NCBI GenBank assembly: GCA_964521325.1
Contig: CAZFRL010000003.1
Coordinates: 6,373 to 70,372 of the forward strand
Reading direction: 5' to 3'
From: an uncultured Dehalococcoidales bacterium
GTDB lineage: Bacteria; Chloroflexota; Dehalococcoidia; Dehalococcoidales; CAZFRL01
DNA: 64,000 nt
Both the position numbers and the translations under genes were made by a program. Positions within the stretch are counted from its first letter, which is position 1, and each line of letters begins with the position of its first letter. Under the pieces are notes generated by a model. It was not told the origin of the DNA, did not search any database, and worked only from the letters and a program-made list of their open reading frames with translations. Positions 9,653 through 34,784 of the stretch are shown here, one piece after another.

Positions 9653-9773
9653 ACGAGGCTGAGCTTCGCCTGAAGTTGTTCCTGATACCTTGCTTACTCA
9701 GCCACTTAGGTTGCAATAATTGCCGAGTTAATGAAGGTACCCGTGGCACAGTTTTCGAGGAGAGAAGTAAAGC

Positions 9774-10394
9774 ATGATACTTGGTATCACCCCAGCTAGG
9801 GGCGGAAGCAAGGGAATTCCAAAGAAAAATATACGGATGATATGCGGGAAGCCCCTGATTGCCTGGACTATTGAAGCTGCCAGACAATCAAGATTACTGG
9901 ATAGGTATATTGTTTCTACAGAGGACGCGGAGATTGCAGAAGTATCAAGAAAATATGGGGCTGAGGTTGTTGAGCGTCCACCGGAGCTTGCCACTGACCA
10001 AGCATCGACCTTATCTGTGCTTCAAGATGTTCTAAAGCGGATTGATGCTGGCACAGTTGTTGTATTGCAGGCAACATCACCAATCCGTAATCCCGATTTA
10101 ATCGACTGCTGCGTTAAGCAGTTCTTGGATAAAGATGCCGATTCACTGGCAACCGGGTTTATCTGCAAATATCAAGAGTATGGCACCTCAATGCTACGCA
10201 GGCAGGACATCGACGGGTTTTTTTATGATGATGGCAATATATATGTGATAAAGGCAGACCTGATAAGGAAAGGGGATAGATACGGTAAGAAAATTGAACG
10301 GGTTATTACTGATGGGGAACAGAATATAGATATAGATGACGAGTTTGATTTCTGGATTGCAGAGCAAGTATTAAAAAAGAGGGGGTTCAAGTAA
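9774..10394 (+). CDS. acylneuraminate (nonulosonic acid) cytidylyltransferase family protein (NeuA/LegF/PseF-like)
   Basis: 206 aa. The N-terminal signature PARGGSKGIPKKN is typical of CMP-NulO synthetases. Confidence 0.85.
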   Translation: MILGITPARGGSKGIPKKNIRMICGKPLIAWTIEAARQSRLLDRYIVSTEDAEIAEVSRKYGAEVVERPPELATDQASTLSVLQDVLKRIDAGTVVVLQATSPIRNPDLIDCCVKQFLDKDADSLATGFICKYQEYGTSMLRRQDIDGFFYDDGNIYVIKADLIRKGDRYGKKIERVITDGEQNIDIDDEFDFWIAEQVLKKRGFK

Positions 10395-14075: not shown

Positions 14076-14776
14076 GTGAAGAAATTACAATCTTAATCTG
14101 CTGTTACAATGGAGAAAGGTTTCTGAGAAGAGCCCTAGATAGTGCTTTCAATCAAACTCTAAACTCTGATAAATTTGAAATCATTTTTGTTGATGATGGC
14201 TCTAACGATTTAACCCCTGAGATTGCCAGAGAGTATATAAACAGGCCTAACTTTAAATACTATAGCCATGAACAAAACTTAGGACTTGTAGCAAGCTGCA
14301 ATAGAGGCTTAGATTTAGCCAAAGGCACATGGGTGATAAGGTTAGACGCAGATGACGCTTTCTCGCTAGATATATTGAGATACACTTACAAATATGTTGA
14401 GGATAAGGAATGTAATTTTATTTATACTGACCGTAAGGACATCTATTGGGATAAAGGAGAGGAACGCTATGTTGACCTAAGTGAGTTTAACCTCTTTGAA
14501 TTGATTGCCACCGGTATCATGATGCGCAAGCAAATTCTTCTTCAAATCGGTGGTTACCGTAACCTATTTTGGGAAGAATATGACCTATATATACGCTATC
14601 TTCAATGTAGCAATGGGAAAATCATCCACATACCACAACCTCTTTACCACTACTCAGTATACCAGGGAAGCATGACTTCACACTCACAGAAGGTAACTGA
14701 AGGTTGGAACGAATTAATAAAAGAATGGGGAACTGATACTCTAAAACAATATGGCACCCATCCTAGACTATTGTAA
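14072..14776 (+). CDS. glycosyltransferase family 2
   Basis: 234 aa. N-terminal ILICCYNGERFL...FNQT...IIFVDDGSND and a DADD (DxD) motif. Confidence 0.85.
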   Translation: MSEEITILICCYNGERFLRRALDSAFNQTLNSDKFEIIFVDDGSNDLTPEIAREYINRPNFKYYSHEQNLGLVASCNRGLDLAKGTWVIRLDADDAFSLDILRYTYKYVEDKECNFIYTDRKDIYWDKGEERYVDLSEFNLFELIATGIMMRKQILLQIGGYRNLFWEEYDLYIRYLQCSNGKIIHIPQPLYHYSVYQGSMTSHSQKVTEGWNELIKEWGTDTLKQYGTHPRLL

Positions 14777-15591
14777 TGAAAAAAGAAGGTTATGTAATCA
14801 TCATCGCTGAAATCGGTGAAAATCACGTCGGTGATATGGAGCTGGCAAAGAAGATGATTGTCCAGGCGGCTAAAGCTGGAGCGGATATGGTGAAGTTCCA
14901 GTCCTATTTAACCTCTGAGGTAAGGGATGATGACCCGGAAAAGGAATGGTTTGCCAGGGTCCAGCTATCAGATAAAGCCCATCATGAGCTTAAAGAGTAT
15001 GCCGAGCGGCACGGAGTTGAATTCTTAAGCTCGCCCTTCTCCCTTAATCGGGCAAAACTCCTCTGTGAAAGGCTGGGATTAAAAAAGATAAAGATTGCCT
15101 CTTCGGAAATGCTTAACTTTTCTCTTCTAGATTATGTTAACCAGTATGCAGAAGTCGTCTTCCTCTCTACAGGAATGGCAACCATAGACGAAATCAAACT
15201 GTCTTTAAGCCACTTGAGCAAAGTGAAAACCTGCTACATCATGCACTGCGTGACCCAATATCCCGCCAAATTTGAAGATATTAATTTAAGCGTTCTAACC
15301 ACCCTTAAAGCTGCTTTTCCTGATTACCCCATCGGTTATTCCGACCACACTGTGAGTATCTTGGCGCCTATTATTGCGGCAGCTTTAGGCGCTGAGGCAA
15401 TAGAGAAGCACTTTACCCTGGACAAAACGCTTCCGGGAACAGACCATGTTCTGGCGGCTACCCCCAAAGAGCTGAAAGAGATGATTAAAAGGGTTAGAGA
15501 AACTGAAAAGATTTTAGGTAAACCAATTAAACACCCTACCTTGGAGGAAGTAGAAATCAGAGACTTTGTTAGAGGCAGGTTTCCCAAATAG
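14776..15591 (+). CDS. NeuB-family nonulosonic/sialic-acid synthase, TIM-barrel domain only (no SAF domain)
   Basis: 271 aa. IIAEIGENHVGDMELAKKMI..AAKAGADMVKFQSY, SSPFS, IKIASSEM, GYSDHT and EKHFTLD match the NeuB/PseI/LegI core. The ORF ends ~70 aa short of typical NeuB proteins, so the C-terminal SAF/antifreeze-like domain is absent. Confidence 0.8.
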   Translation: MKKEGYVIIIAEIGENHVGDMELAKKMIVQAAKAGADMVKFQSYLTSEVRDDDPEKEWFARVQLSDKAHHELKEYAERHGVEFLSSPFSLNRAKLLCERLGLKKIKIASSEMLNFSLLDYVNQYAEVVFLSTGMATIDEIKLSLSHLSKVKTCYIMHCVTQYPAKFEDINLSVLTTLKAAFPDYPIGYSDHTVSILAPIIAAALGAEAIEKHFTLDKTLPGTDHVLAATPKELKEMIKRVRETEKILGKPIKHPTLEEVEIRDFVRGRFPK

Positions 15592-16353: not shown

Positions 16354-18162
16354 ATGAAACTATTACTCTTAGATAGACCAGTTGACAAGAGCATTTTAGA
16401 AGATCGAGAGGTAGAATTTTTCGGGCCGTGGGCACAACCGATGCATCTCCCCGAGGACTTAATCAAGCCCACGTTTGAGCCTTACTCAACACCAGAATCA
16501 GTTTATGAGGCAAGTATAAAAACAATGAGTACGGCTCAGACCCTACTTGCGCAGTTGAAAGATGTAGTGCCGAGCGTGACTGGAGTTAATAGAAACGAAA
16601 GATTTTGGAAAGTATTTTTAGGTCATCATGTGGTAGTTTTAGCCGGGATTGTCCAGGATATTATAGTTAGGCATCAGGCGCTGCCCGAAAAGGATTACGT
16701 TCTCGGACTAGCGCATGATGTCGATTATATAAAGGAACATGTACCTTATTCATGGAATGATGCCCAGGAACTTCTATTTTCCAATGATTGCTTCAGATGG
16801 TATGCAATGGGTTTGTATTTAGAGGACTGCTATAGTAATCACGAATCGGTAAAATACTCGGAAATTCCTCGGAGAAGAATTGCTAAAAGAGCTGATGAAC
16901 TGCGTACAACAATTTCCCAGAATGGTCTTGGATGGCTTTTTAAGAAGGTAATGCCCATTCTTCTCGGTCACGGTAGGCTACAGAGTAAAGAAGAGCAGAT
17001 GCGGGATAATACCTGCTCGTTGGTTTGGGATAGATATCATTTAGACGATTTTGATTTTAAGAAATTAGGGGCTACTGTTCTAACCGAAGAATTTTTGCCA
17101 GACATTAATTCACTCCCATCTTTTCATGTAGACAAGGAAAAAAGAGAGAAGATTGAGAATTCCTTATCTAAACCATACGGAGAACTTCTAAGTTTAAGTT
17201 TACCTGTAATTGCTGTCGAAGGCTTAGCCTATTTGGTTAATTTAATAGCGGCTGAAAAACGGCACTGGTTCAAAAAAATAGAACGCGTCTACACACATGG
17301 GCAAGGATTTAGCAACGAAGGGTCGAAAAGAATATGGCTGGCATTACTTGCCGATGACGGTAAAAAGATCGTATCCATTCAGCATGGAGGTGGGGCAACC
17401 TACTTTGCCCATTCAACGATGTTTCTGGAGAAAATAATTGCCGATGGCTATATATCCTGGGGTCCCGGTTACTCCAATTTTAGTGACTTACCAAATGCTA
17501 ACAAAACGAAAATTCTGCCAAGTATATATCTAACTCATCTTAAACAAAAGAGCCTTATTGATAAAAAAGAGAAATGGGAGATACTTTTTGTTGTTTTAGA
17601 AGAAAACCGTTATACCATATGGCTCCGTAATTCCCTATTCCCAGACATGGCTCACGATTATTTTACTCGACAAAAAGTTCTTTTTGATTATTTTTGTGCG
17701 AGAAGGCAGACTGCGGTGAAGGTTTACCCGGAAACCTATGGATGGGGACAGGCTGAGTGGATCAAGGCGAAATATCCCGCAGCCGATCTCTTAGCAAGTG
17801 GCAGGTTTGTGAATTACGCCTTGCAGTCAAGAATCGTTATCGTTGACTATAGCTCCACTGCTTTTTTAGAGTTACTTGCTATGGGAAGACCCTTTTTAGC
17901 TACCTGGAACCGTAGATGGTTCAAAGGAAATGGTTTGTTTGAGGAATTTATCGACAAATTGATTGATGTCGGAATATTCTACGAGCAACCAGAAGCATTA
18001 ATAAAGTCATATGCTGAAATAATTTCTCCAGATATTACTCTGTGGTGGAATGAAAGCAAGAGGCAAGATGTGCTTAGAGAAATGGCAAACAATTTTGCCA
18101 TGACTTCAGATGAGACGAACAAAGAGTGGAGTGAGGAATTTCAGAAAAACTTACTGTACTGA
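16354..18162 (+). CDS. orphan 602-aa protein, putative GT-B/TagF-like transferase (family unknown)
   Basis: Long ORF tightly packed in the operon. Motifs GKKIVSIQHGGG (~res 342) and RIVIVDYSSTAFLELLAMGRPF (~res 497). I recognise no GT2/GT4 signature. Confidence 0.55.
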   Translation: MKLLLLDRPVDKSILEDREVEFFGPWAQPMHLPEDLIKPTFEPYSTPESVYEASIKTMSTAQTLLAQLKDVVPSVTGVNRNERFWKVFLGHHVVVLAGIVQDIIVRHQALPEKDYVLGLAHDVDYIKEHVPYSWNDAQELLFSNDCFRWYAMGLYLEDCYSNHESVKYSEIPRRRIAKRADELRTTISQNGLGWLFKKVMPILLGHGRLQSKEEQMRDNTCSLVWDRYHLDDFDFKKLGATVLTEEFLPDINSLPSFHVDKEKREKIENSLSKPYGELLSLSLPVIAVEGLAYLVNLIAAEKRHWFKKIERVYTHGQGFSNEGSKRIWLALLADDGKKIVSIQHGGGATYFAHSTMFLEKIIADGYISWGPGYSNFSDLPNANKTKILPSIYLTHLKQKSLIDKKEKWEILFVVLEENRYTIWLRNSLFPDMAHDYFTRQKVLFDYFCARRQTAVKVYPETYGWGQAEWIKAKYPAADLLASGRFVNYALQSRIVIVDYSSTAFLELLAMGRPFLATWNRRWFKGNGLFEEFIDKLIDVGIFYEQPEALIKSYAEIISPDITLWWNESKRQDVLREMANNFAMTSDETNKEWSEEFQKNLLY

Positions 18163-18176
18163 TAATAAGGGAAACC

Positions 18177-20093
18177 ATGATTTTGTTTTTTGAAGCCTAT
18201 TCTATTATTCAGACCCTGTTCCTATTTAGGTATATAAGGAAGGCAAGGCTTATCTACTTTCATAAGCGAGGTGTCCCTAGGTCAGATTTTGCTCCAGGGG
18301 TCAAAAGACGTGTGGAGAGATTAATACACCTCATAAATAAAAGGGTTGAGATAAAAACCATCCCCACTGAAAAGGTTTACCAGTATAATTGGGAGCTTAA
18401 TAAGGAGGCAGTTGGTCTTGTCGAGGAGTTGACATCTGATATACAACAGTCTTCTGTCTACAGAATGGTACTGAAAATAATTCGGGATGCCAATATATTG
18501 AAGTTTTACCAACAACGACTAGCGACAGATATACCAGATAGATGGTTATTTATGAAGGTGGCAAAAGCCCTGAGTTCTGAGCATGATTCTCTGGTCATTA
18601 TCCCAAAGAGCAACGATAATTCTTTCTTAGAAATTAAGTTGTTTGGGAATGAAGAACTGGGGAAATATTCTATATCGGTCACCCGCAGAGCTAATAATCT
18701 CAGGTTCTTCTTTAGGAAAGTAGGTGCATTAGCTATCCTGCTTTTACTCCCTCTGGGTTTTGTTATTCTGCGGACTAGGATAACCTTAAGCAGGATTAAT
18801 CGAGAAAGCTACGACGTGGCGATGCCTGTAATCTGGGGATTTCACGGGGATGAGGATAAGGCAAAAATAAGGGGGGTTAGGAGACCACATAATGACGAAT
18901 ACTTATACAACGAGGAAATAATAAGAGGCCATATTATTCATATCTTTGGTGATTGGCGAGATACCGACGTAGTTGATAATAACTATAAAAGAATCATGAA
19001 TAAAAAAGGTATTCCCTACATAGATAGGCGGGATTATAAGGCGAACATAAATTTTCTTTTGACCGCAGGCAGGATTCAATTAAAGATTCTAACCGGTTTG
19101 TGGCAAAATTCTCTTTGCTGGCGGAGTCCTCTTGATTATATAGACTATAGCATTGGAGCTATTAACTGCATGTTAAGAAAGTACCTTGAATTTGAAAACA
19201 TTGGCTACAAAGTAGAACTGATGAGGCACGATTATAGTGCCGCTCATATTGTAGAAACAATTCTGTGTAACCAGCAAGGGAAGAAAACTGTTGGCATCCA
19301 GCACCGCGTAACAGCCGGCCCAAATGTGATGAATTCATTGTGTTACGTGCACATGGACAAATATTGCATATTTAGCGATGCCCACTTGAGACTGTATTCT
19401 CCGTATTGGGAGAAGCTCGATTTAGCCAAGACAGGAGCAATGGATATCGATTGGACGATTAATCTGGTTGATAACGGGAAATTAATGGTAAACAACCTTA
19501 AACAAAAGATGCACTCGTTATATAAGGTAAGAAAATATACCGTTCTCATTGCGTTTCCAGGTCCCTCCGGATACAATCAGCAAAGCAAGTGGGCTGAAAT
19601 GTATGACGCTTTACGGGAATTCAAATCACTTGATACTGACTGTAATGTTTTCTTGCGATTTAGAACGATTGACGACCTTAGTGCCCCTCATATGGTCCGT
19701 TTTGCCGACCTTCCTAAAAGAGACGAGCGTATAATCATAGATCTTACTAATTTTACAACTTATGAATTAATGGCCTTGTGTGACTTATATATTACTAGCT
19801 CCCACTCATCTGGGCTTATCGAGGCTGTAGCTATCGGGAAGAAGGCGTTCACCTTTGATTACATGGGAACAACTCAATATTGTTTCAGTAATTATGGCAA
19901 AGACCTCATCCTTACTATAAAGGACGACGTTTTGGCCTTATTTAAGGACTTAGAAAATAATTTTGCTGGATACGACTGTAACTGGGAGTTACTGAGGAAA
20001 GAATATAATTACTACTATGACGGCAGATGTTCGGAGAGACAACAAAGAGTCGTGTGTGAGACAGTGAAGGAAGTTAGTCAAGGGAAAACGTGA
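18177..20093 (+). CDS. orphan 638-aa protein, distant paralogue of the preceding ORF, putative transferase
   Basis: Motifs GKKTVGIQHRVT (~res 373) and CDLYITSSHSSGLIEAVAIGKKAF (~res 538). One internal hydrophobic segment (VGALAILLLLPLGFVIL). Confidence 0.55.
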   Translation: MILFFEAYSIIQTLFLFRYIRKARLIYFHKRGVPRSDFAPGVKRRVERLIHLINKRVEIKTIPTEKVYQYNWELNKEAVGLVEELTSDIQQSSVYRMVLKIIRDANILKFYQQRLATDIPDRWLFMKVAKALSSEHDSLVIIPKSNDNSFLEIKLFGNEELGKYSISVTRRANNLRFFFRKVGALAILLLLPLGFVILRTRITLSRINRESYDVAMPVIWGFHGDEDKAKIRGVRRPHNDEYLYNEEIIRGHIIHIFGDWRDTDVVDNNYKRIMNKKGIPYIDRRDYKANINFLLTAGRIQLKILTGLWQNSLCWRSPLDYIDYSIGAINCMLRKYLEFENIGYKVELMRHDYSAAHIVETILCNQQGKKTVGIQHRVTAGPNVMNSLCYVHMDKYCIFSDAHLRLYSPYWEKLDLAKTGAMDIDWTINLVDNGKLMVNNLKQKMHSLYKVRKYTVLIAFPGPSGYNQQSKWAEMYDALREFKSLDTDCNVFLRFRTIDDLSAPHMVRFADLPKRDERIIIDLTNFTTYELMALCDLYITSSHSSGLIEAVAIGKKAFTFDYMGTTQYCFSNYGKDLILTIKDDVLALFKDLENNFAGYDCNWELLRKEYNYYYDGRCSERQQRVVCETVKEVSQGKT

Positions 20094-20111: not shown

Positions 20112-21716
20112 ATGATAATTATTTGTATTATCCCGGCAAAATCAGACTCTAAGCGACTAAAAAATAAGAATATGGCACAAATAGCAGGAAAACCCCTCAT
20201 TTACTATACAATAAAAGCGGCCCAAGCATCTAAAAAAATTGATAAGGTCTACGTATCTACAGATTCAGAGGAAATTGCAGGTTATGCCGAGAAAATGGGT
20301 GTTGAGGTTATTAAAAGAGGACAAGAATTATGTGGAGAAGCACCAGTATTAGATGTTTTTAACCATGCTTATAACAGTGTGTATAATCGCGAGATTACAC
20401 ATATTGTCGGTCTCCAGCCTGACCATCCCGACCGCAGGATGAATATTGATGAAGCAATCCGATACGGGTTAGATTCAGACTTTGACCTGCTTAAGAGCGT
20501 GGATGGCAAAGGCAGGGTAAATGGTTCTTTCTGGATGATAAAAGCGCCTTTCTTAAAGGAAAAGCGCCCCGGTTTTAAGGTAGGCACAGTCATGGACCCT
20601 TGTACTAATATTCACACCGAGGAGGACTTATTAATCGCCGAGAGGTATATTCTGCGAAAACAAACTATCGAAGTTGCTGGCAAAAAGATAGGTAAAGGTT
20701 GCCCCACTTTTGTTATAGCTGAGGGTGCTTGCAATCATATGTGTGACTTAACCCTGGCCAAGAAAATGATTGCCAAGGCTAAAGAAGCAGGGGCTGATGC
20801 CATAAAATTTCAAGCTTATAAAGCAGAACGTCTTGTAACCAAACATGCCGAGAGTTACTGGAAATATCCGGGCATAAAGTCTCAATTTGACTATTATAAA
20901 CAACTGGACAAATTCGGTGAAAGGGAATATGGCGCACTATTTGAGTATGCTAAAGAACAAGGGATTATTGCTTTCGCCACACCCTTCGATATCGAAAGCG
21001 CTTCCATGCTTAATAAGCTTGGTGTGCCTCTTTTTAAAATCGCCTCCTGTGATTTACCGGATATTAGGCTTTTAAGACATGTTGCCAGTTTTAGGAAACC
21101 CGTTATCCTATCAACCGGTGGGGCAACTCTGGAAGAAGTCAAAAACGCTGTTACCACTTTAGCCAGGGAGGGTGTTGAAGATTTAATCTTAATGGTTTGC
21201 ACTTTAAGTTATCCAGCAGGAAACGAAAGTGCTCACTTGCGGCGGATTACCGCATTTGAGAAGGAGTTCCCTGAATTAATCATTGGTGTTTCTGACCACA
21301 CAAATCCTGACCGGCAAATGCTTATCCCGTCGGTGGCGGTTGCCCTGGGTGCCAAGGTTGTAGAAAAACATTATACGTTAGACCGCAACATGACTGGCTC
21401 CGGGCATGCTTTTTCAGTTACCCCTGATGACTTGAAGAAAATGATAGAAAACATCCGGTTAACCGAACAGGTGCTGGGAAGCTCAGAAATACGTATTTAT
21501 CCACAAGAGGAAGCAGTCCGAGAAAATGCCAGGAGAAGCCTGGTGGCTGAGGTTCTTATCAAAAGTGGGGATATAATAACCTCAGAAATGGTAGGAATAA
21601 AACGCCCTGGAAATGGCTTACCGGCCTATATGATTGATACCATCATAGGAAAACGAGCCAGACAAGATATTAAGCCAGAACAGCAGATAACTTTAGAAAT
21701 GCTGGAGGAGCCCTAA
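20112..21716 (+). CDS. bifunctional fusion: NulO cytidylyltransferase-like domain + NeuB-type nonulosonic-acid synthase with SAF domain
   Basis: 534 aa. The N-terminal ~190 aa carry IPAKSDSKRLKNKN and GLQPDHPDR (cytidylyltransferase fold). Residues ~195-534 carry FVIAEGACNHMCDL..AK.MI..AKEAGADAIKFQAYK, FKIASCD and SDHT, plus a C-terminal SAF-like segment (ARRSLVAEVLIKSGDIITSEMVGIKRPGNGL). Confidence 0.85.
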   Translation: MIIICIIPAKSDSKRLKNKNMAQIAGKPLIYYTIKAAQASKKIDKVYVSTDSEEIAGYAEKMGVEVIKRGQELCGEAPVLDVFNHAYNSVYNREITHIVGLQPDHPDRRMNIDEAIRYGLDSDFDLLKSVDGKGRVNGSFWMIKAPFLKEKRPGFKVGTVMDPCTNIHTEEDLLIAERYILRKQTIEVAGKKIGKGCPTFVIAEGACNHMCDLTLAKKMIAKAKEAGADAIKFQAYKAERLVTKHAESYWKYPGIKSQFDYYKQLDKFGEREYGALFEYAKEQGIIAFATPFDIESASMLNKLGVPLFKIASCDLPDIRLLRHVASFRKPVILSTGGATLEEVKNAVTTLAREGVEDLILMVCTLSYPAGNESAHLRRITAFEKEFPELIIGVSDHTNPDRQMLIPSVAVALGAKVVEKHYTLDRNMTGSGHAFSVTPDDLKKMIENIRLTEQVLGSSEIRIYPQEEAVRENARRSLVAEVLIKSGDIITSEMVGIKRPGNGLPAYMIDTIIGKRARQDIKPEQQITLEMLEEP

Positions 21717-21750: not shown

Positions 21751-22797
21751 ATGAAAACGTGGGTACTTGTCGGGAATGAGAAACTAGAATTAAAAGAGAT
21801 ACCAATTCCCAATCCAGGGGCAGATGAGATTCTGGTCAGGGTCAAAGCGGCTAGCATTTGTAATAGGACTGACCTTGTTGCCTTTATGTATAACGAAAAA
21901 CCCGTTGAATTTTTCGGGTATAAATTACCCCACCCTGATGATTTTGGGTATGAGTGGGTTGTCCGCAGCCCCTTGTATCTTGACCACTTTGGTCACGAGG
22001 TGACAGGAATTGCAGAAAGGGTAGGAAAAGATATAACGAAAATAGCTACCGGGGACCGTGTTTTTTTGCGTAGCCCCGTAAGAAACCCAGAGCGCTCAGG
22101 ATTTGCCGAATATGTATTAGCCAAGGAATACATGATAGCTAAATTACCCCAGTACTTATCTTTTGAAGAGGGGGTGCTTGGCGAGCTTCTTCCCATCGCC
22201 ATAGGTGCAGCCAGGGACATCAGGCTTGGGGACTACGTGGGCATACTTGGTCAAGGTCCCGGAGGATTGATGATTACCCAGGTGGCAAAACTTCAGGGAG
22301 CCGCTAAAATAATTGTGGCTGATAAGTATGAAAAGAGGTTGAAATTGGCAAAAGAGTTGGGAGCTGACTGCGTAGTCAATGTGACAAGAGAAAATATAGA
22401 AAAGAAGGTGAAGGATATTATAGGAGTATCAGATTTGAAGGACTATGGTCTGGATGTAGTTATTGATGCTGTAGGCACACCAGATGTCTTGAGAGAATGC
22501 CTTAGGTTGGTGAAGAAAGGGGGCTCAGTAAGAATCTTTGGGACGCACCACTTAGAGCCAGTAATGATTGATGTGGTAAAGTGGGAGGAAAAGGCGGTAA
22601 CTATAGGCATGTCAAATGAGGCCACACCTGAAGAAACCGCAGAAAGAATGGCAAGAGCGCAACGCTTATTGGAAGCTGAACTTATAAAAACAAAACCCTT
22701 CATAACCCATGTTTTCAGGCTAGAAGAACTACCACAAGCATTTGCCCTATTAAAGAACTCACCAGGGGAGGTGATAAAGGTTGCTATCACGCCGTGA
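21751..22797 (+). CDS. zinc-type medium-chain dehydrogenase/reductase (sorbitol/threonine dehydrogenase-like)
   Basis: The start is moved to the ATG at 21751, preceded by an AAGGAG SD; the track start is 21730. CNRTD and GHE zinc-ligand contexts and the GQGPGGL Rossmann motif are present. Confidence 0.8.
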   Translation: MKTWVLVGNEKLELKEIPIPNPGADEILVRVKAASICNRTDLVAFMYNEKPVEFFGYKLPHPDDFGYEWVVRSPLYLDHFGHEVTGIAERVGKDITKIATGDRVFLRSPVRNPERSGFAEYVLAKEYMIAKLPQYLSFEEGVLGELLPIAIGAARDIRLGDYVGILGQGPGGLMITQVAKLQGAAKIIVADKYEKRLKLAKELGADCVVNVTRENIEKKVKDIIGVSDLKDYGLDVVIDAVGTPDVLRECLRLVKKGGSVRIFGTHHLEPVMIDVVKWEEKAVTIGMSNEATPEETAERMARAQRLLEAELIKTKPFITHVFRLEELPQAFALLKNSPGEVIKVAITP

Positions 22798-24181
22798 AAC
22801 ACTAAAGGTTACGGTATATATCCCAGCCTATAATTACGGGAAATATATTGAGATGGCTATCCAGAGTGTGTTAAATCAAACCATGGAAGATTGGGAATTG
22901 ATAGTCATAAATGATGGCTCAACAGATAACACCTCGGAGATTCTAAAGGGATATGAAAGCCATCCCAAAATTAGAATTATTGAGCAGCAAAACAAAGGAC
23001 TAACTGTATCGAATAACATTGCTTTAAGGTTGTCTAGCGGTAAATACTTGATGCGACTGGATGCGGATGATTATTTAGACGAAAATGCCCTTCTGGTCTT
23101 GTCAAATGTCCTGGATAGCAAGCAGGAGATTGGCCTTGTTTACCCTGATTACTACGTTATTGATGAAGAAGGAGAAGTTCTTGAAATCGTGCGCAGGAAG
23201 AAGATAGGAGAAGAAGTCGAGTTGCTTGATTTACCTGCCCATGGCGCATGTACTATGTTCCGTAAAGAATGCCTGGTAAGAATCAAGGGGTATGAGGAGA
23301 GTATCGGTTGCCAGGATGGGTATGATATTTGGCTTAAATTTAACCGATTATTTAAGCCGTCTAATGTTAATGTCCCCCTATTTTATTATCGGCAGCATCG
23401 GGGGAACCTAACCAAGGACCAGCAAAAACTTCTGCGGACACGAAAGGCAATCAAAAGCGATTTCGTAAGGAAGTATTTGGACAACGATGTCCCTCGTGTC
23501 TTAGGTATTATTCCAGTGCTGAAGAAATCTCTTTCTTATCCCTATTCCCCTTTCGTAGACCTTGCCGGGAAACCTCTATTATGGTACACAATTCATGAAG
23601 CTTTACAAACGAAAACGCTAGATAAAGTTGTGGTCACTTCAGATGATGACGAAGTCTTGAATTACGCTAAAGCATTTGCTGATATCACTATTATAAAGAG
23701 ACCTCCTGAGCTAACGAAATCTTCTTCGAAAATAGAATCCATTGTAATACACACTCTTAATGTTCTTAAAGAAAAGCATAATGTCCATAATCCGGATGCT
23801 GTCATGGTTTTATATGTTAATGTCCCACTTAGAAAAGCAACACATATAGAAGAAGCAATAAATACAATGGCTATTTTTGATGTTGATAGCGTGGTTTCGG
23901 TGTGTGAAGAACTGGCGTTTTGCTACACGCATGACAGAGATGGCTTAGCCCCTATCTGGAGCAAAAGGGACTTCAGGATAGAAAGAAACTCTATTTATAA
24001 GGAAAACGGAGCCATCCTTTTAAGTAAAGTTACTGCTGTAACGGAAAAGGATTTTTGGGGTAAGAAGATAGGGCATGTCATTATGCTCCCCGAGGAGAGC
24101 ATAAAGATAAATAGTCAGTTTGAATTTTGGCTGGCAGAAAAGATAATATCCGAATGGGATGCGGGGAATGCTGAAGCTTAA
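22781..24181 (+). CDS. fusion: GT2 glycosyltransferase + C-terminal acylneuraminate-cytidylyltransferase-like domain with degenerate N-terminal signature
   Basis: 466 aa. Residues 1-230 carry VYIPAYNYGKYI...NQT...VINDGSTDNT and LDADD (GT2). Residues ~235-460 align in architecture with NeuA-like proteins (GKPLLWYTIHEA, VVTSDDDEVLNYA, IKRPPEL, ending QFEFWLAEKI like the 9774 protein's DDEFDFWIAEQV). The ARGGSKG..KN loop is replaced by PVLKKSLSYPYSPF. Confidence 0.75.
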   Translation: MLSRRETLKVTVYIPAYNYGKYIEMAIQSVLNQTMEDWELIVINDGSTDNTSEILKGYESHPKIRIIEQQNKGLTVSNNIALRLSSGKYLMRLDADDYLDENALLVLSNVLDSKQEIGLVYPDYYVIDEEGEVLEIVRRKKIGEEVELLDLPAHGACTMFRKECLVRIKGYEESIGCQDGYDIWLKFNRLFKPSNVNVPLFYYRQHRGNLTKDQQKLLRTRKAIKSDFVRKYLDNDVPRVLGIIPVLKKSLSYPYSPFVDLAGKPLLWYTIHEALQTKTLDKVVVTSDDDEVLNYAKAFADITIIKRPPELTKSSSKIESIVIHTLNVLKEKHNVHNPDAVMVLYVNVPLRKATHIEEAINTMAIFDVDSVVSVCEELAFCYTHDRDGLAPIWSKRDFRIERNSIYKENGAILLSKVTAVTEKDFWGKKIGHVIMLPEESIKINSQFEFWLAEKIISEWDAGNAEA

Positions 24182-24196: not shown

Positions 24197-26005
24197 ATGA
24201 CTACAGCTACATCTAAACCAGGGACAATGAGACCTAAGAGAGAAATAAAGATAGCCCTTGCATACATCAGGAGATATAAACGGCTATCTGCCATAAATGC
24301 ATTGGTATTAATTGGGGTAGCTGCTTCTGAAGCGTTTGGGATTGGGATGATTATTCCCATTCTACAAAGTCTGATTGGAGAGGCCGGCATAGATTTTTTC
24401 ATCATCGACTATATCAGGTCACTATGTGCCTTTTTGCATATTGAGTATAATTTCCTGAATTTAATGGCTATTTTTGCTGTTATAATAGCGATAAGGTATG
24501 GTCTTACCGCTTTACAACAATATTTAGCTAGGCTTCTGAGTGCGTCCGTAACCTACGAACTCCGAGAAAGAGCTTTCCAAAACTTGATGGACCTTCCCTT
24601 AAATTACCATTACAAACAAAAGACGGGGGATATAATTGCCACTTTATACACTTCGTCGCAGAGTTCAGGTGTTGTGATAGAACAATCTATATTAGCCTTT
24701 TCAATGGTGATAATTTGCTTGGCTTATCTAGTTATTAACTTTTTAATATCCGTCCCGCTTACTCTAATTGTGTGTGTACTGGCTTCACTTTCATATTTTC
24801 TAATAATACCCAGATTTAGAATTGGCTTTATCCAGGGAGGTGAAGAGAAAGGTTTAATAGATAAAATTTCCTCGTTCCTAGTTGATACGCTAGGGGGAAT
24901 TAAAATTCTTAAGTCGTTCAATAACGAAAGCTTCCATGTGAGGAAATTTAGGCAACTGAATTCTTCCTTTAAAAAACTTTCTATTCGGATACAGCTCAAC
25001 CGGATGATAGCTGGTATTTTTTCTGAGCCTCTTATATTTCTAATCACAATTAGTTTAATGGTTTTTGCCATCCAGGTGTTAAATATGTCTCTTGTTTTGA
25101 TGATAACCTTTTTCCTTGTTTTTATTCGATTAATTCCGCAAATTAAGGGGGTCAATGCTAATTATTTGCTGATTTTACAATTATTGCCGCACTTCTCAAA
25201 AGTTGAGGATATAGTTAGGCGAGAGAACAAAACATATCTTCCCGATGGCTCTAGAGAAATCAGGACAATTCGTTCTGGGATAGAATTTAGCCATGTTTAT
25301 TTTAGATATCCCAGCTCTCGGGAGTCTGTTTTGAAGGATGCCAATCTAATGGTGGAAAAGAACAAAAGTACGGCTTTGGTAGGAGTCTCGGGGGGTGGTA
25401 AGACCACAATAGTAGACTTGATTTTAAGGCTGCATGACCCTGATAAAGGTCTTATCAAAGTGGACGGGATTGACTTGCGCGAGTTTAGGAGGAGTGATTG
25501 GCACCGGATTCTCAGTGTAGTTCACCAAGATCCGTATTTATTTAATGACACCATATATAACAATATCTTGTATGGAAAACTAGGGGCTACGAAGGAAGAG
25601 GTTATCAATGCTGCTAAATTGGCGAACGCACATGATTTTATCTCGAAGTTGTCCGATAAATATGACACCCAGGCAGGGGAGAGAGGAGTGAAGCTTTCAG
25701 GGGGGGAGAAGCAAAGGATAGCGCTAGCCAGGGCATTGATAAAAAACCCTGAGGTTTTAATACTTGACGAAGCTACAAGCGCTTTGGACAGTGAATCTGA
25801 AAGGCTCATTAAGGACGCTATTGCCAGGCTTATCACCAGCAAAACAATAATTATTATTGCCCACAGGATATCTACGATTGTGGATGCGGATAAAATAATT
25901 GTTGTTGATAATGGAGAGATTGTCGAAGAAGGTACTCATGAGGAATTGCTCCAAAAAGACGGTATATATAAGAAAAATTATAGTCTACAACTACTCACCG
26001 CATAA
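24197..26005 (+). CDS. ABC exporter, fused permease/ATPase (MsbA/PglK-like)
   Basis: 602 aa. Six N-terminal TM helices, Walker A GVSGGGKTT, signature LSGGEKQR and Walker B ILDEATSALD. Confidence 0.9.
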   Translation: MTTATSKPGTMRPKREIKIALAYIRRYKRLSAINALVLIGVAASEAFGIGMIIPILQSLIGEAGIDFFIIDYIRSLCAFLHIEYNFLNLMAIFAVIIAIRYGLTALQQYLARLLSASVTYELRERAFQNLMDLPLNYHYKQKTGDIIATLYTSSQSSGVVIEQSILAFSMVIICLAYLVINFLISVPLTLIVCVLASLSYFLIIPRFRIGFIQGGEEKGLIDKISSFLVDTLGGIKILKSFNNESFHVRKFRQLNSSFKKLSIRIQLNRMIAGIFSEPLIFLITISLMVFAIQVLNMSLVLMITFFLVFIRLIPQIKGVNANYLLILQLLPHFSKVEDIVRRENKTYLPDGSREIRTIRSGIEFSHVYFRYPSSRESVLKDANLMVEKNKSTALVGVSGGGKTTIVDLILRLHDPDKGLIKVDGIDLREFRRSDWHRILSVVHQDPYLFNDTIYNNILYGKLGATKEEVINAAKLANAHDFISKLSDKYDTQAGERGVKLSGGEKQRIALARALIKNPEVLILDEATSALDSESERLIKDAIARLITSKTIIIIAHRISTIVDADKIIVVDNGEIVEEGTHEELLQKDGIYKKNYSLQLLTA

Positions 26006-26040: not shown

Positions 26041-26814
26041 ATGAAGAATCCCTTAAAAATAAAGCTGAGAAATAATGAACTCACCATCGGTAGTTGGATT
26101 ACACTGGGACACACCGCTATCGCTGAGATTATGGCTAAAGCTGGATTTGAGTGGTTGACGATTGATATGGAGCACAGTGTAATAACCCTTGATACTGCCC
26201 AGCAGCTAATCCAGGTTATTGAGGGCTGTGGTGTTGTTCCCCTGGTCAGAGTTGGAGAAAACAATCCAAACATAATTAAGCGGGTGATGGATGCTGGTGC
26301 CTACGGAGTAATTGTTCCTATGGTGAATAGCAAAGAGCAGGCTGAAGCCGCGGTTAAGGCAGTTAAATATCCATCTGTTGGTACTAGAGGGGTAGGATTA
26401 GCTCGAGCTCAAGGTTACGGTGACAACTTTGATGAATATGCTGCAACCGTTAATGAGGCATCCATAGTAATCGCTCAAATAGAACACATAGATGCGGTAA
26501 ATAATATTGAATCAATCCTTTCTGTAGCTGGGATAGATGGTTGCATAATAGGCCCCTACGACTTATCTGCCTCGCTGGGAATACCCGGTGATTTTGCTCA
26601 TCCCGAAGTAATAGCAGCGTTGAAAAAAGTAGAACAGACTTGCCGGGAGAAAAAAGTTGCCTTAGGCGTACATATAATCCAGCCAGATTATAGGTTAGTC
26701 TTGGAAGAAATTGCCAAAGGCTACTGTTTTATAGCTTTTAGCTTGGACATATTGTTTTTGGGCAATACCTGCCGCGAGCAGATGGCAAGGCTTAAGGAAA
26801 ATATAGAGAGGTAA
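26041..26814 (+). CDS. HpcH/HpaI-family class II (pyruvate) aldolase
   Basis: 257 aa. G.W........AEI.A.AGF.W..IDMEH, PLVRV, GVIVPMV and GPYDLS match 2-keto-3-deoxy-sugar-acid aldolases (HpaI/YfaU/GarL type). Confidence 0.85.
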   Translation: MKNPLKIKLRNNELTIGSWITLGHTAIAEIMAKAGFEWLTIDMEHSVITLDTAQQLIQVIEGCGVVPLVRVGENNPNIIKRVMDAGAYGVIVPMVNSKEQAEAAVKAVKYPSVGTRGVGLARAQGYGDNFDEYAATVNEASIVIAQIEHIDAVNNIESILSVAGIDGCIIGPYDLSASLGIPGDFAHPEVIAALKKVEQTCREKKVALGVHIIQPDYRLVLEEIAKGYCFIAFSLDILFLGNTCREQMARLKENIER

Positions 26815-26817
26815 ATA

Positions 26818-27597
26818 ATGAAGATAATAGGCATAATTCCAGCTAGAATGGGTTCGTCTCGTTTTCCAGGTAAGCCACTGGCAAAAATACTGGGAATTCC
26901 GATGATGGGACATGTCTATTTTAGAAGCAAAATGAGCCAAAGTCTAGATGAAATTTATGTAGCCACCTGTGATAAAGAGATTTGTGATTATGTGGAATCC
27001 ATCGGCGGTGAGGCTATTATGACCTCAGATTCTCATGAGCGCTGCACTGATAGGATTGCTGAAGCACTTGAAAAAATAGAAGCAACGACCAGGAGCAGGG
27101 TAGATATTGTGGTCAATATTCAGGGAGATGAACCCATGGTTTTTCCTGAAATGATTGACGAAGCAGTAGCTCCAATGTTAATTGATAGCTCTATAGTAAC
27201 CACCAATCTAATGGCGCAAATGAAAACCCGTAAGGAACATGAAGACCCGAATGAGGTGAAGGTGGTAGTTGACCAAGATAATTATGCCCTATATTTTTCC
27301 CGGGAACCCATCCCGTCATGGAAGAAAGGGGCAACCGAAGTGCCTATGTTAAAACAGGTATGTATCATTCCCTTCCGGCGAGACTTTTTATTCAGATTTA
27401 ATCAACTTGAGCCCACTCCGCTGGAGAAAGTTGAATCGGTAGATATGTTACGGGCTATGGAACATGGCTATAAGGTAAAGATGGTTCTAACCAGTTTTGA
27501 AACCTTTAGTGTAGATACCTCTGAAGACCTGCGCTTTGTCGAAGAACGGATGAAAAATGACCCGCTTCTTCCAAAATATCAAGGGACTGAGAAATGA
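26818..27597 (+). CDS. kdsB: 3-deoxy-manno-octulosonate cytidylyltransferase family protein (KdsB-like; substrate uncertain)
   Basis: 259 aa. IIPARMGSSRFPGKPL, H.RCTDRIAE, NIQGDEP, YALYFSREPIP and VESVDMLRAMEHG align along the whole length with my recollection of E. coli KdsB. Confidence 0.8.
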   Translation: MKIIGIIPARMGSSRFPGKPLAKILGIPMMGHVYFRSKMSQSLDEIYVATCDKEICDYVESIGGEAIMTSDSHERCTDRIAEALEKIEATTRSRVDIVVNIQGDEPMVFPEMIDEAVAPMLIDSSIVTTNLMAQMKTRKEHEDPNEVKVVVDQDNYALYFSREPIPSWKKGATEVPMLKQVCIIPFRRDFLFRFNQLEPTPLEKVESVDMLRAMEHGYKVKMVLTSFETFSVDTSEDLRFVEERMKNDPLLPKYQGTEK

Positions 27598-32162: not shown

Positions 32163-33971
32163 ATGAAAGACACTATTATCGTGCATGCCAGAGATATAAA
32201 AAAAGCCTCACCCATAGCAGCCAAGAGGCCTTTTAACTGGCTCTACTTGGGACAAGATATCAAACAAAGGGAGAATATTTCCCAGGCGCTGGGGAAGGAA
32301 AATCGCTACTTCATTGGAGATTTATTACAGAAGGCTGCCCTTAGAGAAAAGCAGCCATTTCTCGATTTCATCGCCCAGCTAGGTCTTTGCCAGAAAAACA
32401 AACTTTACTGGTGGTCATCAAATACTGCCTATAGACACCCATTTCTGAGAAACGACCTCTTTTTACTCTGGTGTTATAATGCCATCCTTGACAAGATTTG
32501 CTCAGAAAAGAAACAAGATGGAGATAGAGTACTTTTTATTCTTGTCGAGGACCGTTGGTTGTATCGGTATTTGTGGGAACACAGCCAGAAGAATGGATAT
32601 GGTTTTCGTTTTTTAAGCCGGAAATCTGTGCTTCCAGAAATTCTGAAGTCCGTAATTAGGGGCATCGCCAGTAGAGGGTATTTTCTGCTAAAGACTACCT
32701 ACCAAGTTTGGCAGTCAAGAGGTATTGCTTCTAGGCGTAAAATCATTAGTAGCAAAGGGGATAGGCAGCAAGTTTATATTTATTCCTGGATACAGGATAG
32801 GTTCTTCCAGGGAAACGGGAAGTTTAACGATGCTTATTTGGGAAGGCTACCAGAAATCTTAACTAAAAACGGCTTTAATGTTGCCTACATTACATCTCCG
32901 TTTCTCTACCCCGCCCTAAAGAGAAAATGCCTGGATTACGGTAAGTATGAATTCACCTTCTTGGACCAGTACATCGATTTTGGCAACATAGTGAAGTGTC
33001 TATTTACCCTTTCCCCTATTTCTTATGATAGTAAGCAAAGATGGTTAAGGACGCTACTCTGGCGCCAAACCGTGTATGAAATTTCCTCGGTTCCTGGACA
33101 CCTTCTTTATTACTGTGCTTTTAAAAAGTGGCTGAAAGAAATTAGCCGGGGTGAGATTACCATAGTCTACCCCTTTGAAAACCAGCCCTGGGAAAAAATG
33201 CTCTGTATGGCGGCAAAAGAGTCAGGCAAAAATATAAAGCTGGTTGGTTATCAACACTCAGTAGTCCCCGCCTTATTGCTAAACTATTTCCTTGGGGCTA
33301 AGGAGTCCAGTAATATGCCTCTGCCTCACACTGTAGTAGCCAATGGTGAATATACACTGGAATTACTTAAGAATGCCAGGTATGGGAATGTGGAATTGGT
33401 GAATGGGGGTGCTCTGCGATATGAGCACCTTCATGAGATTAGAGAACGCTTAACTAAAAAAGAGGGGAAATTAAAAACTGTTTTGGTAGCACTGCCCTAC
33501 CTAGCTAATCTTGCCCGAGAGATGTTATTAACTACATTTAATACCTTCAAAGATTCGGAGGGGGAAAATATCAGAATCATTATAAAGCCCCATCCAGTTG
33601 TGCCCTTAAAACGCTTAAAAATGCAGCCGTTGTCTTGGCCGGCGCATTTTCAGAAAACAGATAAATCCATATCGGAAATCCTTAAAGATGTCGATTTGCT
33701 TATTTACTCATCATCAACTACCGGCTTAGAGACGCTCCTGGCTGGTGTTCCAGTCATTAAATACTGCTCGGGGCATATTATTGATCTTGATACCTTAGAT
33801 GCTCTTGATGGAGCAGCGGTAAGAAGTTGCTCTGAAAATAACATGAAGCAAGTGGTTTTATCAGCTCTAAATGAAAAGAGTGACCACTCAGCCCAACGAC
33901 TTACAACGAGCCTTGACCGGTTCTTTTCTCCAGTTAACGAAGACGTATGGAAGCAAATCGTGAAGTGTTAA
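32163..33971 (+). CDS. orphan 602-aa protein, third member of the QH/SS-motif putative transferase group
   Basis: Motifs GKNIKLVGYQHSVV (~res 361) and VDLLIYSSSTTGLETLLAGVPVI (~res 512). The motif order and ~150-residue spacing match ORFs 16354 and 18177. Confidence 0.55.
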   Translation: MKDTIIVHARDIKKASPIAAKRPFNWLYLGQDIKQRENISQALGKENRYFIGDLLQKAALREKQPFLDFIAQLGLCQKNKLYWWSSNTAYRHPFLRNDLFLLWCYNAILDKICSEKKQDGDRVLFILVEDRWLYRYLWEHSQKNGYGFRFLSRKSVLPEILKSVIRGIASRGYFLLKTTYQVWQSRGIASRRKIISSKGDRQQVYIYSWIQDRFFQGNGKFNDAYLGRLPEILTKNGFNVAYITSPFLYPALKRKCLDYGKYEFTFLDQYIDFGNIVKCLFTLSPISYDSKQRWLRTLLWRQTVYEISSVPGHLLYYCAFKKWLKEISRGEITIVYPFENQPWEKMLCMAAKESGKNIKLVGYQHSVVPALLLNYFLGAKESSNMPLPHTVVANGEYTLELLKNARYGNVELVNGGALRYEHLHEIRERLTKKEGKLKTVLVALPYLANLAREMLLTTFNTFKDSEGENIRIIIKPHPVVPLKRLKMQPLSWPAHFQKTDKSISEILKDVDLLIYSSSTTGLETLLAGVPVIKYCSGHIIDLDTLDALDGAAVRSCSENNMKQVVLSALNEKSDHSAQRLTTSLDRFFSPVNEDVWKQIVKC

Positions 33972-33995
33972 ATGTCAGTACGAGGAGGGCTAACA

Positions 33996-34784
33996 ATGGA
34001 AAAGCCTGAAGTGGTGATTTTATGTGGTGGCAAAGGCTCCCGGTTAAGTGAGGAGACGATTCTTAAGCCGAAACCAATGGTTGAAATAGGTGGAAGACCA
34101 ATATTATGGCATATAATGAAAATTTATGCCCATTATGGCCATAAAAGGTTTATCCTTGCCCTAGGTTACAAAGGTGAAGATATTAAGAGATACTTCTATG
34201 ACTATAGAATTATGTCGGCTGATTTTACCCTGCCTATGCATCCGCATGAGCCTCCACAGCTTCATAACATTCATAAAGATAATGACTGGGAAATCACCTT
34301 TGTTGATACAGGGTTAAATACCTTGAAAGGTGGAAGGATAAAACGTCTAGAGAAATATATAAAATCTGAAGACTTCCTTTTAACCTATGGTGATGGTGTA
34401 GCCAACATAAATATTGATGACCTTTATAAGTTTCATATCTCCCATGGTAAGATTGGAACGGTAACTGCGGTAAGACCTCCCTCAAGATTCGGCGAGCTAG
34501 TATTATCCAGCGATGAAGTGGTTAAATTTGAGGAGAAACCCCAGCTTGGCACCGGGGTGATTAATGGGGGGTTTTTCGCGTTTAAAAGAGAATTCCTGAA
34601 GTATCTAACGCCTGACGAAGACTGTGATTTTGAGTTTAGTGCTTTGCAGAAACTGGCTCAAGATGGGCAATTGAAAGCCTACTTCCATACCGGATTCTGG
34701 CAGTGCATGGATAATGTCCGTGATAGGGATTACTTAAATAGCCTGTGGGATGATAATGAAGCACATTGGAAGGTATGGAAGTGA
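33996..34784 (+). CDS. rfbF: glucose-1-phosphate cytidylyltransferase
   Basis: The start is moved to the ATG at 33996, preceded by an AGGAGG SD; the track start is 33972. ILCGGKGSRLSEET..KPKPMVEIGGRPILWHIMKIYAHYG...LGYKGE.IK.YF.DY and GFWQCMD match RfbF/DdhA closely. Confidence 0.85.
   Translation: MEKPEVVILCGGKGSRLSEETILKPKPMVEIGGRPILWHIMKIYAHYGHKRFILALGYKGEDIKRYFYDYRIMSADFTLPMHPHEPPQLHNIHKDNDWEITFVDTGLNTLKGGRIKRLEKYIKSEDFLLTYGDGVANINIDDLYKFHISHGKIGTVTAVRPPSRFGELVLSSDEVVKFEEKPQLGTGVINGGFFAFKREFLKYLTPDEDCDFEFSALQKLAQDGQLKAYFHTGFWQCMDNVRDRDYLNSLWDDNEAHWKVWK

Follow-up and report, generated by a model that had tools for sequence, protein, structure and literature searches.

Knowledge of the transferases that act on the sialic-acid-like sugars of bacteria and archaea has been called scarce (PMC5420450), and in 2018 it was noted that, among the organisms that glycosylate proteins with legionaminic acid, none had an identified transferase for this sugar (PMC6137143). 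In Tannerella forsythia, Tanf_01245, TFUB4_00887 and BFO_1060 are implicated genetically as transferases for derivatives of pseudaminic or legionaminic acid, with nonulosonic acids (NulO) activated by cytidine monophosphate (CMP) as the proposed donors; the BFO_1060 and Tanf_01245 proteins have an HP motif and a TagB-like domain (PMC5420450). In Herbaspirillum, neuABC has as neighbours a gene of the LIC12162 family and one annotated as 'surface carbohydrate biosynthesis protein' (PMC6679464). The subject here is a set of three open reading frames (ORFs), hereafter A, B and C, in a stretch of 64,000 nucleotides from an uncultured Dehalococcoidales bacterium (contig CAZFRL010000003.1 of assembly GCA_964521325.1), the whole of which I call the window. 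I propose, with a probability of about 0.6, that all three encode transferases for the cytidine-nucleotide-activated donors of neighbouring gene modules, and that they act on a lipid-linked surface glycan.

Residues that matter in enzymes of this kind have been described. A (K/R)XHP motif is common to sialyltransferases and to retaining transferases for 3-deoxy-D-manno-octulosonate (Kdo): its K/R contacts the cytosine, its His the CMP phosphate, and its Pro stacks with the base; the CMP phosphate is bound by a pair of Ser residues and the ribose by a Glu, and the retaining Kdo transferases take their nucleophile from a QXXXD motif that follows strand 1 of the C-terminal domain (PMC12887879). 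H444 of TagF, the proposed base, sits in a WHG motif, which is replaced by QHG or QYA in hexose-phosphate transferases of the GT-B fold (GT, glycosyltransferase) and in other GT-B enzymes (PMC11666461). In TarL, a second invariant His contacts the donor phosphate, a Glu lies on the ribose, and long amphipathic helices bind the membrane (PMC10901376).

The original prediction, made from the sequence without database searches, had described A, B and C as orphan proteins sharing two motifs at constant spacing. Their coordinates were exact and their start codons ATG (602, 638 and 602 aa), all six quoted motif strings were located at the expected places, motif 2 lies 154, 164 and 150 residues beyond the His of motif 1 in A, B and C, and no Pfam match to a GT2, GT4 or GT-C family was obtained, as had been claimed. 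The description as orphans of an undescribed family holds for B only, since A and C belong to catalogued families. ORF A matched TIGR04331 ('LIC12162 family transferase') over residues 264-596 with an E of 9.2e-49 and 166.6 bits, and PF27859 ('LIC12162') is precomputed on its own entry (P0029) and on all 28 homologues; the LIC12162-type family, which the prediction had named with some uncertainty, was thus the correct one for A. Because 166.6 bits is below the 225-bit cutoff of TIGR04331, A classifies as a divergent subfamily. ORF C matched TIGR04326 over residues 314-564 (E 1.8e-32; 112.5 bits against a cutoff of 250), the name that the Joint Genome Institute (JGI) gives to some of its homologues, and TIGR04396 (E 5.6e-5). 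It also matched BFO_1060_trans (NF046086; 15.3 bits, E 0.008), far enough below the 200-bit cutoff to indicate relatedness only. Capsule_synth (PF05159, the KpsC/KpsS family), another home that had been considered, was matched by C only, over residues 452-533 (E 0.008), at 16.1 bits against a gathering cutoff of 20, and A and B gave no match to it. Both LIC12162/PF27859 and TIGR04326 have catalogue entries as families of putative transferases or of surface carbohydrate biosynthesis.

ORF B itself matched no Pfam or NCBIfam family. Among 78 diverse members of its family, eight matched TIGR04396 (best 2e-10), five BFO_1060_trans (best 4.5e-7), two matched NeuC weakly (E 2e-4), one matched TarF (E 0.005), and none matched TIGR04326 or TIGR04331. 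The closest curated relatives of the B family are TIGR04396 and the BFO_1060 nonulosonic-acid transferases.

Pairwise BLASTP among A, B and C found no significant similarity (E 0.09-0.5), although the best local pairs already put motif 1 in line, so family profiles were compared instead. Homologues were collected for B (n=28), A (n=29) and C (n=156), and an exhaustive profile search enlarged the B family by 345 representative clusters at 50% identity. The hhalign probability for B and C was 93.5% with the first alignments and 97.0% with the larger ones (E 8.9e-11, 557 columns), and the alignment spans both proteins end to end. When all ORFs of the window were searched with family hidden Markov models (HMMs), the B-family model ranked C second (E 2e-4), the C-family model ranked B second, and no fourth paralogue was found; two remote B-family members also match the C-family model. 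The profile comparison, the reciprocal ranks and the remote-member matches together identify B and C as true and very old paralogues. The hhalign probability was 56.6% and then 66.7% for A and C (E 5e-5 with the larger alignments), and 15% and then 27% for A and B (E 7e-4), with both motifs in register. In the AlphaFold2 models, strands and helices follow one another in the same order in A and in B, and motifs 1 and 2 sit on equivalent strands. A is a more distant relative with the same architecture as B and C. The predicted relatedness of the trio is therefore upheld by profile homology, though not by pairwise BLASTP, and the links of A are the weaker ones.

A TagF-like GT-B fold had been predicted, and the models of A (mean predicted local distance difference test score, pLDDT, 84.6; predicted template modelling score, pTM, 0.88) and of B (90.8 and 0.91) agree with this in matching GT-B enzymes, TagF being the best match of B. 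Foldseek comparison with the PDB gave 39 matches at E<=1e-3 for A; among the matches listed, all are GT-B proteins, and they include SPY, 2-epimerases, BshA, PseG, HMW1C, TagF and WbbB. For B there were 75 matches at the same threshold, again to GT-B enzymes, with the teichoic-acid polymerase TagF (3l7l) on top (E 6e-7) and with 2-epimerases of uridine diphosphate (UDP)-N-acetylglucosamine (GlcNAc), MurG, a polysialyltransferase and others below it. Both models carry large helical insertions. The GT-B assignment of the modelled A and B is safe, and the fold alone picks no sub-family. For C, the GT-B fold would follow from its full-length homology to B (97%); the C-family profile, searched against the PDB, found KpsC (6mgb, E 0.013).

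In each family, conservation peaks at the motif residues. In the B family (112 members, down to 16% identity) D352, W411, G420, R494, T528, S544 and E549 are each conserved in at least 90% of the members, and in motif 1 H376 is found in 100% and the preceding Q in 60%. Q343-H344-G345, K456, D498, E506 and P513 are invariant in the A family, and E339-N340, Q364-H365 (94%), K475 (90%), H477-P478 (100%) and E523 (99%) stand out in the C family. All three families share a core: the His of motif 1, a basic residue that closes the second strand of the C-terminal domain, a single Ser/Thr and, four to five positions later, a Glu; the Ser/Thr and Glu pair (T502/E506 in A, S544/E549 in B, T519/E523 in C) is 79-100% conserved. 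A hydroxyl-bearing loop followed by a Glu is generic to GT-B nucleotide sites. Motif 1 is literally QHG in A and QH in B and C; in the model of A it forms a strand (338-342) followed by a low-confidence loop (345-359). The His-based site that had been proposed is thus matched by an invariant His in a QH(G) motif, a variant of the WHG of TagF (PMC11666461). The other half of that proposal did not stand: neither the 'SS' doublet of motif 2 nor the 'GK(K/N)' prefix of motif 1 is conserved within the families.

The (K/R)xHP motif is complete only in C, the corresponding residues being KxYP in A and RxR in B. In C, H477 and E523 are 46 residues apart, compared with 49 in KrkA (H227-E276). The position of the second His of TagF (H584) and TarL (H433) is occupied, in the sequence alignment, by H477 in C (100%), Y458 in A and R496 in B. 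ORF B has, in addition, a hydrophobic segment (residues 182-200) that lies within a 32-residue helix of its model (167-198). Because a 19-residue window of at least 1.6 on the Kyte-Doolittle scale is present in 64% of 133 B-family members, this helix suggests that B is anchored in the membrane.

The three ORFs belong to a long plus-strand surface-glycan operon (about 7.4-36.8 kb) with gaps of 0-25 nt, in which A lies 1 nt past a methyltransferase gene and B 14 nt past A. The operon begins with TviC- and TviB-like enzymes, a PseF-like cytidylyltransferase, a PseC/LegC-like aminotransferase, a dehydratase and a formyltransferase, followed by a PIG-L deacetylase, a short GT2, a NeuB without SAF domain and the methyltransferase that precedes A and B. 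After B come a cytidylyltransferase-NeuB-SAF fusion, a Zn-dehydrogenase, a GT2-cytidylyltransferase fusion and an ATP-binding cassette (ABC) exporter. An HpaI-type aldolase, a KdsB-subfamily cytidylyltransferase, two methyltransferases, a 2-hydroxyacid dehydrogenase, an HAD phosphatase and an epimerase lead up to C, which is followed by RfbF, a radical SAM (S-adenosylmethionine) enzyme and a GT2. The prediction that the locus makes sugars activated by CMP or cytidine diphosphate (CDP) and lacks an evident enzyme for their transfer agrees with these NeuB, KdsB-type and RfbF genes, and no sialyl- or Kdo-transferase is recognisable anywhere in the window.

This setting recurs in related loci, designated by L numbers. 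A and B are adjacent or nearly so in L001, L003, L004, L010 and L012; L003, an Anammoxibacter metagenome-assembled genome whose B is 39% identical, keeps the adjacency and was the one locus found by a scan of genome contigs with the B-family profile. Very weak matches to A (21-22% identity) lie beside B in L017 and a few kb from B in L021. Among 13 loci with usable flanks, a NeuB-like gene lies within 10 kb of the B-family gene in 11 and a CTP_transf_3-like gene in 10. Homologues of C (about 30% identity) occur in two loci without NeuB: in L007 beside a KdsB-like gene and an HpcH aldolase (5661-9971; the aldolase adjacent, the cytidylyltransferase within about 4.5 kb upstream), and in L006 beside CTP_transf_3, HAD and methyltransferase genes. 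Two fusion proteins contain a B-like domain. In P0200 it is joined to a B12-radical-SAM enzyme, and in P0232 to a NeuC-like fragment and a BFO_1060/TIGR04396/Glyphos_transf-like domain. The analysis as a whole brings two catalogued families, together with an uncatalogued one that has at least 345 clusters, into a single GT-B superfamily tied to ulosonic-acid loci. Separately, B12-binding radical SAM genes were seen between the A-like and B-like genes of L001 (8365-9780), in several copies in L003, L004 and L010, and in the window itself at 52659-54095 (-).

I infer from these data that A, B and C are paralogues, long since diverged, within one superfamily of GT-B enzymes of about 600 residues, found in loci for glycans of nonulosonic and ulosonic acids. 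They would transfer their sugars to a lipid-linked glycan on the cytoplasmic face of the membrane, and the ABC exporter of the operon would then move the glycan across. The donors of A and B would be the CMP-nonulosonates made by the two NeuB/cytidylyltransferase modules; for C, the HpcH-aldolase/KdsB-type module would supply a CMP-activated 2-keto-3-deoxy acid, or else RfbF would lead to a CDP-hexose derivative. If the three work as other GT-B enzymes do, the nucleotide would be gripped by the C-terminal Rossmann domain through the basic residue (K456 in A, R494 in B, K475 in C) and through the Ser/Thr at a helix start (T502, S544, T519), and the Glu four to five residues on (E506, E549, E523) would bind the ribose. 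In C, His477-Pro478 would complete a (K/R)xHP motif for the CMP phosphate and the cytosine. At the cleft, the N-terminal domain would contribute the QH(G) histidine (H344, H376, H365), which could act as general base or phosphate ligand, like H444 of TagF, and B would probably be held at the membrane by its hydrophobic helix. The case is strongest for C, with its full set of CMP motifs, its links to KpsC and TIGR04396 and its KdsB-type neighbours, and weaker for A and B because both lack the HP dipeptide.

A broader version of this proposal is doubtful as a whole. It would make of the ORFs two or three new GT families absent from CAZy and specialised, in environmental prokaryotes, for CMP-activated nonulosonic and other 2-keto-3-deoxy acids. 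A and B might form a two-enzyme unit on the lipid-linked glycan, possibly a polymerase or a sequential capping pair, with an Arg-x-Arg in B in place of the HP, and the fusion of B to a B12-radical-SAM enzyme in some lineages might couple transfer to C-methylation.

Several observations weigh against a role of the three proteins in transfer from cytidine-activated donors. The cytidine-specific HP dipeptide is replaced by YP in A and by RxR in B. No match to Glyphos_transf (PF04464) was found for A, B or C at E<=1, so that the (L/I)ITDYSS-type signature, which had been put forward as a mark of TagF and of CDP donors, lost its support together with the SS doublet; nor was there a Pfam sialyltransferase match or a significant Capsule_synth match for any of the three. 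The template modelling scores (TM-scores) of the fold matches of A and B are modest (0.25-0.38, query-normalised), UDP-GlcNAc 2-epimerases score on a par with TagF, and searches of the PDB with the A- and B-family profiles gave nothing even at E 10. The links of A to B (27%) and to C (67%) are weak. The locus also makes non-cytidine nucleotide sugars, with TviB/TviC-like enzymes and a heptose pathway, and no functional study of LIC12162, TIGR04331, TIGR04326, TIGR04396 or PF27859 was found in the papers searched. Finally, a QXXXD nucleophile motif is lacking in C, residues 436-470 of which contain no conserved Q or D (L441, V442 and F462 are conserved there). A retaining Kdo-transferase mechanism was rejected for C because that motif is missing.

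The main rival explanation is that A, B and C are GT-B nucleotide-sugar hydrolases or hydrolysing 2-epimerases, analogues of NeuC, LegG and PseG that free a hexose for NeuB-type condensation with phosphoenolpyruvate. The window does contain two NeuB-type synthases and no recognisable NeuC, LegG or PseG, and UDP-GlcNAc 2-epimerases have the highest target-normalised TM-scores for both models (0.55-0.61), above those of TagF (0.52-0.55 for the matches of B, 0.42 for the single match of A). PseG is among the fold matches of A, one homologue of B has a precomputed Epimerase_2 match, and the two NeuC matches in the B family point the same way. The motifs H-x-H-G-G-E and N-S-S-S-G of NeuC-type enzymes resemble motifs 1 and 2. 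However, A, B and C themselves match none of the NeuC, LegG and PseG models (Epimerase_2, TIGR03568, Glyco_tran_28_C), and the family-level matches favour the transferase-type BFO_1060 and TIGR04396 models over NeuC. In loci L001, L003 and L004, NeuB is accompanied by a distinct PseG-like gene and both A and B are present as well, for which reason a role as substitutes for PseG was rejected. P0232 has a NeuC-like segment besides its B-like domain, homologues of C occur with no NeuB nearby, the conserved hydrophobic helix of B would be unexpected in a soluble hydrolase, and three hydrolases of 600 residues would be hard to place in one locus. A hydrolytic function is quite improbable.

Transfer from other donors, such as UDP-, GDP- or dTDP-sugars, including a TagF-like transfer of hexose 1-phosphate that makes phosphodiester-linked glycans, is unlikely but agrees with part of the data. 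The generic GT-B character of the motif-2 nucleotide loop, the absence of the HP dipeptide from A and B, the predominance of UDP-dependent GT-B enzymes among the Foldseek matches, and the TviB/TviC-like, heptose-pathway and other enzymes of nucleoside diphosphate (NDP)-sugars in the locus would all fit it. CslB, a TagF-like polymerase, takes its sugar from a UDP-activated donor. It makes both glycosidic and phosphodiester linkages (PMC5974469), and the QHG variant has been reported for hexose-phosphate transferases of the GT-B fold in particular (PMC11666461). Yet the ORFs are tightly and repeatedly associated with CTP_transf_3/NeuB or KdsB-type genes, their nearest curated relatives are the BFO_1060-type NulO transferases, and the complete (K/R)xHP of C aligns to KpsC; at least six GT2 and two GT4 enzymes of the locus are available for ordinary NDP-sugars, and nothing else is there for the CMP-activated products. 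That the shared motifs are a chance resemblance between unrelated proteins, as the pairwise BLASTP values and the low A-B probabilities (15-27%) would allow, is the least credible explanation: it conflicts with the full-length B-C homology, the reciprocal HMM matches, those of the two remote B-family members, the common order of elements in the models of A and B, and the conservation of the motif residues. Chance is largely excluded for B and C and unlikely for A. Transfer from cytidine-activated donors accordingly remains the preferred reading, and the features on which it draws are collected in the Table.

Table. Coordinates in the window of ORFs A, B and C, their motifs and the neighbouring genes of donor synthesis and export
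Feature	Position	Strand	Description
ORF A	16354..18162	+	602 aa, ATG start; GT-B fold enzyme, LIC12162 family (Pfam PF27859; TIGR04331-like)
A motif 1	17359..17394	+	GKKIVSIQHGGG, residues 336-347; Q343-H344-G345 (QHG) invariant
A K456-V-Y458-P459	17719..17730	+	At (K/R)xHP position by hhalign register with KPHP of C; K 100%, Y 85%, P 82%
A motif 2	17830..17895	+	RIVIVDYSSTAFLELLAMGRPF, residues 493-514; D498, E506, P513 invariant; T502 is T/S
ORF B	18177..20093	+	638 aa, ATG start; GT-B fold enzyme of uncurated family
B hydrophobic segment	18720..18776	+	VGALAILLLLPLGFVILRT, residues 182-200; Kyte-Doolittle 2.25; probable membrane anchor
B motif 1	19278..19313	+	GKKTVGIQHRVT, residues 368-379; H376 the sole invariant residue (112 diverse family members)
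B R494-F-R496	19656..19664	+	At (K/R)xHP position by hhalign register with C; R494 93%, R496 83% (K 15%)
B motif 2	19779..19850	+	CDLYITSSHSSGLIEAVAIGKKAF, residues 535-558; S544 97%, E549 91%
ORF C	32163..33971	+	602 aa, ATG start; TIGR04326-like 'surface carbohydrate biosynthesis protein', full-length B homologue
C motif 1	33225..33266	+	GKNIKLVGYQHSVV, residues 355-368; Q364 and H365 94% each
C K475-P-H477-P478	33585..33596	+	Complete (K/R)xHP; H and P 100%, K 90%; aligns to K-V-H-P of KpsC
C motif 2	33690..33758	+	VDLLIYSSSTTGLETLLAGVPVI, residues 510-532; T519 79%, E523 99%, G528 93%; aligns to SSQMGFE of KpsC
PseF-like cytidylyltransferase (CTP_transf_3)	9774..10394	+	
NeuB-family synthase without SAF domain	14776..15591	+	Two genes upstream of A
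CTP_transf_3 (N-terminal part)-NeuB-SAF fusion	20112..21716	+	Immediately downstream of B; kept in L001, L004, L010
GT2-CTP_transf_3 fusion	22781..24181	+	
Fused ABC exporter (transmembrane and nucleotide-binding domains, TMD-NBD)	24197..26005	+	Possible flippase/exporter of lipid-linked glycan; kept downstream in L001, L004, L021
HpaI/HpcH-type aldolase and KdsB-subfamily cytidylyltransferase (above NCBIfam cutoff)	26041..27597	+	Candidate donor module for C
Glucose-1-phosphate cytidylyltransferase RfbF (above cutoff)	33972..34784	+	First base directly follows C stop codon

Other features of the operon concern the supply of donors. The block directly upstream of C (26041-32137, +), from the aldolase and KdsB-type genes to the epimerase, may be a route to a CMP-activated 2-keto-3-deoxy sugar acid that is independent of NeuB and KdsA. 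In the fusion downstream of B, the N-terminal 100 or so residues of a CMP-sugar cytidylyltransferase are joined to a full NeuB-SAF; both this fusion and the GT2-cytidylyltransferase fusion are kept at 60-80% identity in several metagenomic loci (L001, L004, L010, L021). The short GT2-like protein (234 aa) lies immediately before the SAF-less NeuB (14072-15591, +), and the pair recurs in L017 (5896-7443), whereas it is a PseG-like gene that is found in loci with NeuB-SAF. The missing hydrolysis of the nucleotide sugar may be carried out by this short GT2. Read from its listed TTG start, the gene at 11550-12593 (+) shares 94 nt with the aminotransferase gene upstream. Its matches to families set in at residue 31-33, and the real start probably lies some 90 nt downstream of the listed one.

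Elsewhere in the window, a nucleotide-heptose-like block (47969-52576, -) contains transaldolase-like, HAD (GmhB-like), SIS (GmhA-like), GHMP kinase, nucleotidyltransferase and 4,6-dehydratase-type genes and is flanked by GT4 and GT2 genes at 41706-47287 and 54116-55793. A membrane protein of 581 aa (39873-41618, +) with a weak PMT_2 match (GT-C, ArnT/PMT-like) may act on the finished glycan as a periplasmic or extracytoplasmic transferase. A strong DUF1616 match (E 4e-75) and two large HdrA-like Fe-S flavoproteins were noted at 6259-7131 (-) and 57093-62519 (+); the only paper found on DUF1616 concerns a membrane glycoprotein of Haloferax volcanii. If the host were archaeal, its lipid carrier would be dolichol and not undecaprenol. 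Three ORFs in or beside the cluster have no Pfam family (43884-44981, -; 45222-46253, -; 4725-6212, +; 365, 343 and 495 aa), the second having a marginal match to HprK-related kinase A only. Rfam and tRNA scans of the window found nothing.

Given the scarcity of transferases for the sialic-acid-like sugars of bacteria, A, B and C make reasonable targets for study. The analysis puts LIC12162, TIGR04326 and the unnamed B family (at least 345 clusters) on one GT-B scaffold, gives for each family a short list of invariant residues, and ties each to a gene module that makes donors. Concrete candidates and mutation targets are thereby provided for the assignment of NulO transferase activities, with possible use as tools of glyco-engineering. 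An annotation gap is filled; nothing is overturned, the system is not of a new kind, and a specialist will find little to be surprised at.

Compared with known systems, A, B and C resemble the CDP-polyol phosphotransferases TagF, TarL and TagB in the GT-B fold (for C by homology to B), with the best structural match of B, in the N-domain His of a (W/Q)HG-type motif, in a putative ribose-binding Glu and in long, putatively membrane-binding helices (PMC10901376, PMC11666461). They differ from these enzymes in that PF04464 is not matched and that the second His (H584 of TagF, H433 of TarL) has an aligned counterpart only in C, and nothing in the three proteins indicates formation of a phosphodiester rather than a glycosidic bond. 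With the sialyl- and beta-Kdo transferases (KpsC of GT107, WbbB of GT99, KrkA of GT140), C shares the (K/R)xHP and the Ser/Thr and Glu, and it aligns to KpsC, while WbbB and a polysialyltransferase occur among the fold matches of A and B. The beta-Kdo transferases differ in their QXXXD motif, which C does not have, and in the HP that A and B replace, and the N-terminal half of the ORFs is much larger and different. The BFO_1060 proteins are alike in their NulO loci and GT-B fold, in weak but repeated HMM links (E 0.008 for C, down to 4.5e-7 in the B family) and through the P0232 fusion; they are, however, about 445 aa long, compared with about 600-640 aa and large helical insertions in A, B and C, A and B lack their HP dipeptide, and the similarity is far below the 200-bit cutoff. 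C matches both TIGR04326 (LIC13510-type) and TIGR04396, the latter being shared with the eight B-family members mentioned above; all of these scores are under the curated cutoffs, and B itself matches neither. The LIC12162 family (TIGR04331/PF27859), named after LIC12162 of Leptospira interrogans, is matched by A over residues 264-596, A differing as a divergent subfamily (166.6 versus 225 bits), and its arrangement in Herbaspirillum mirrors the pairing of A and B seen here.

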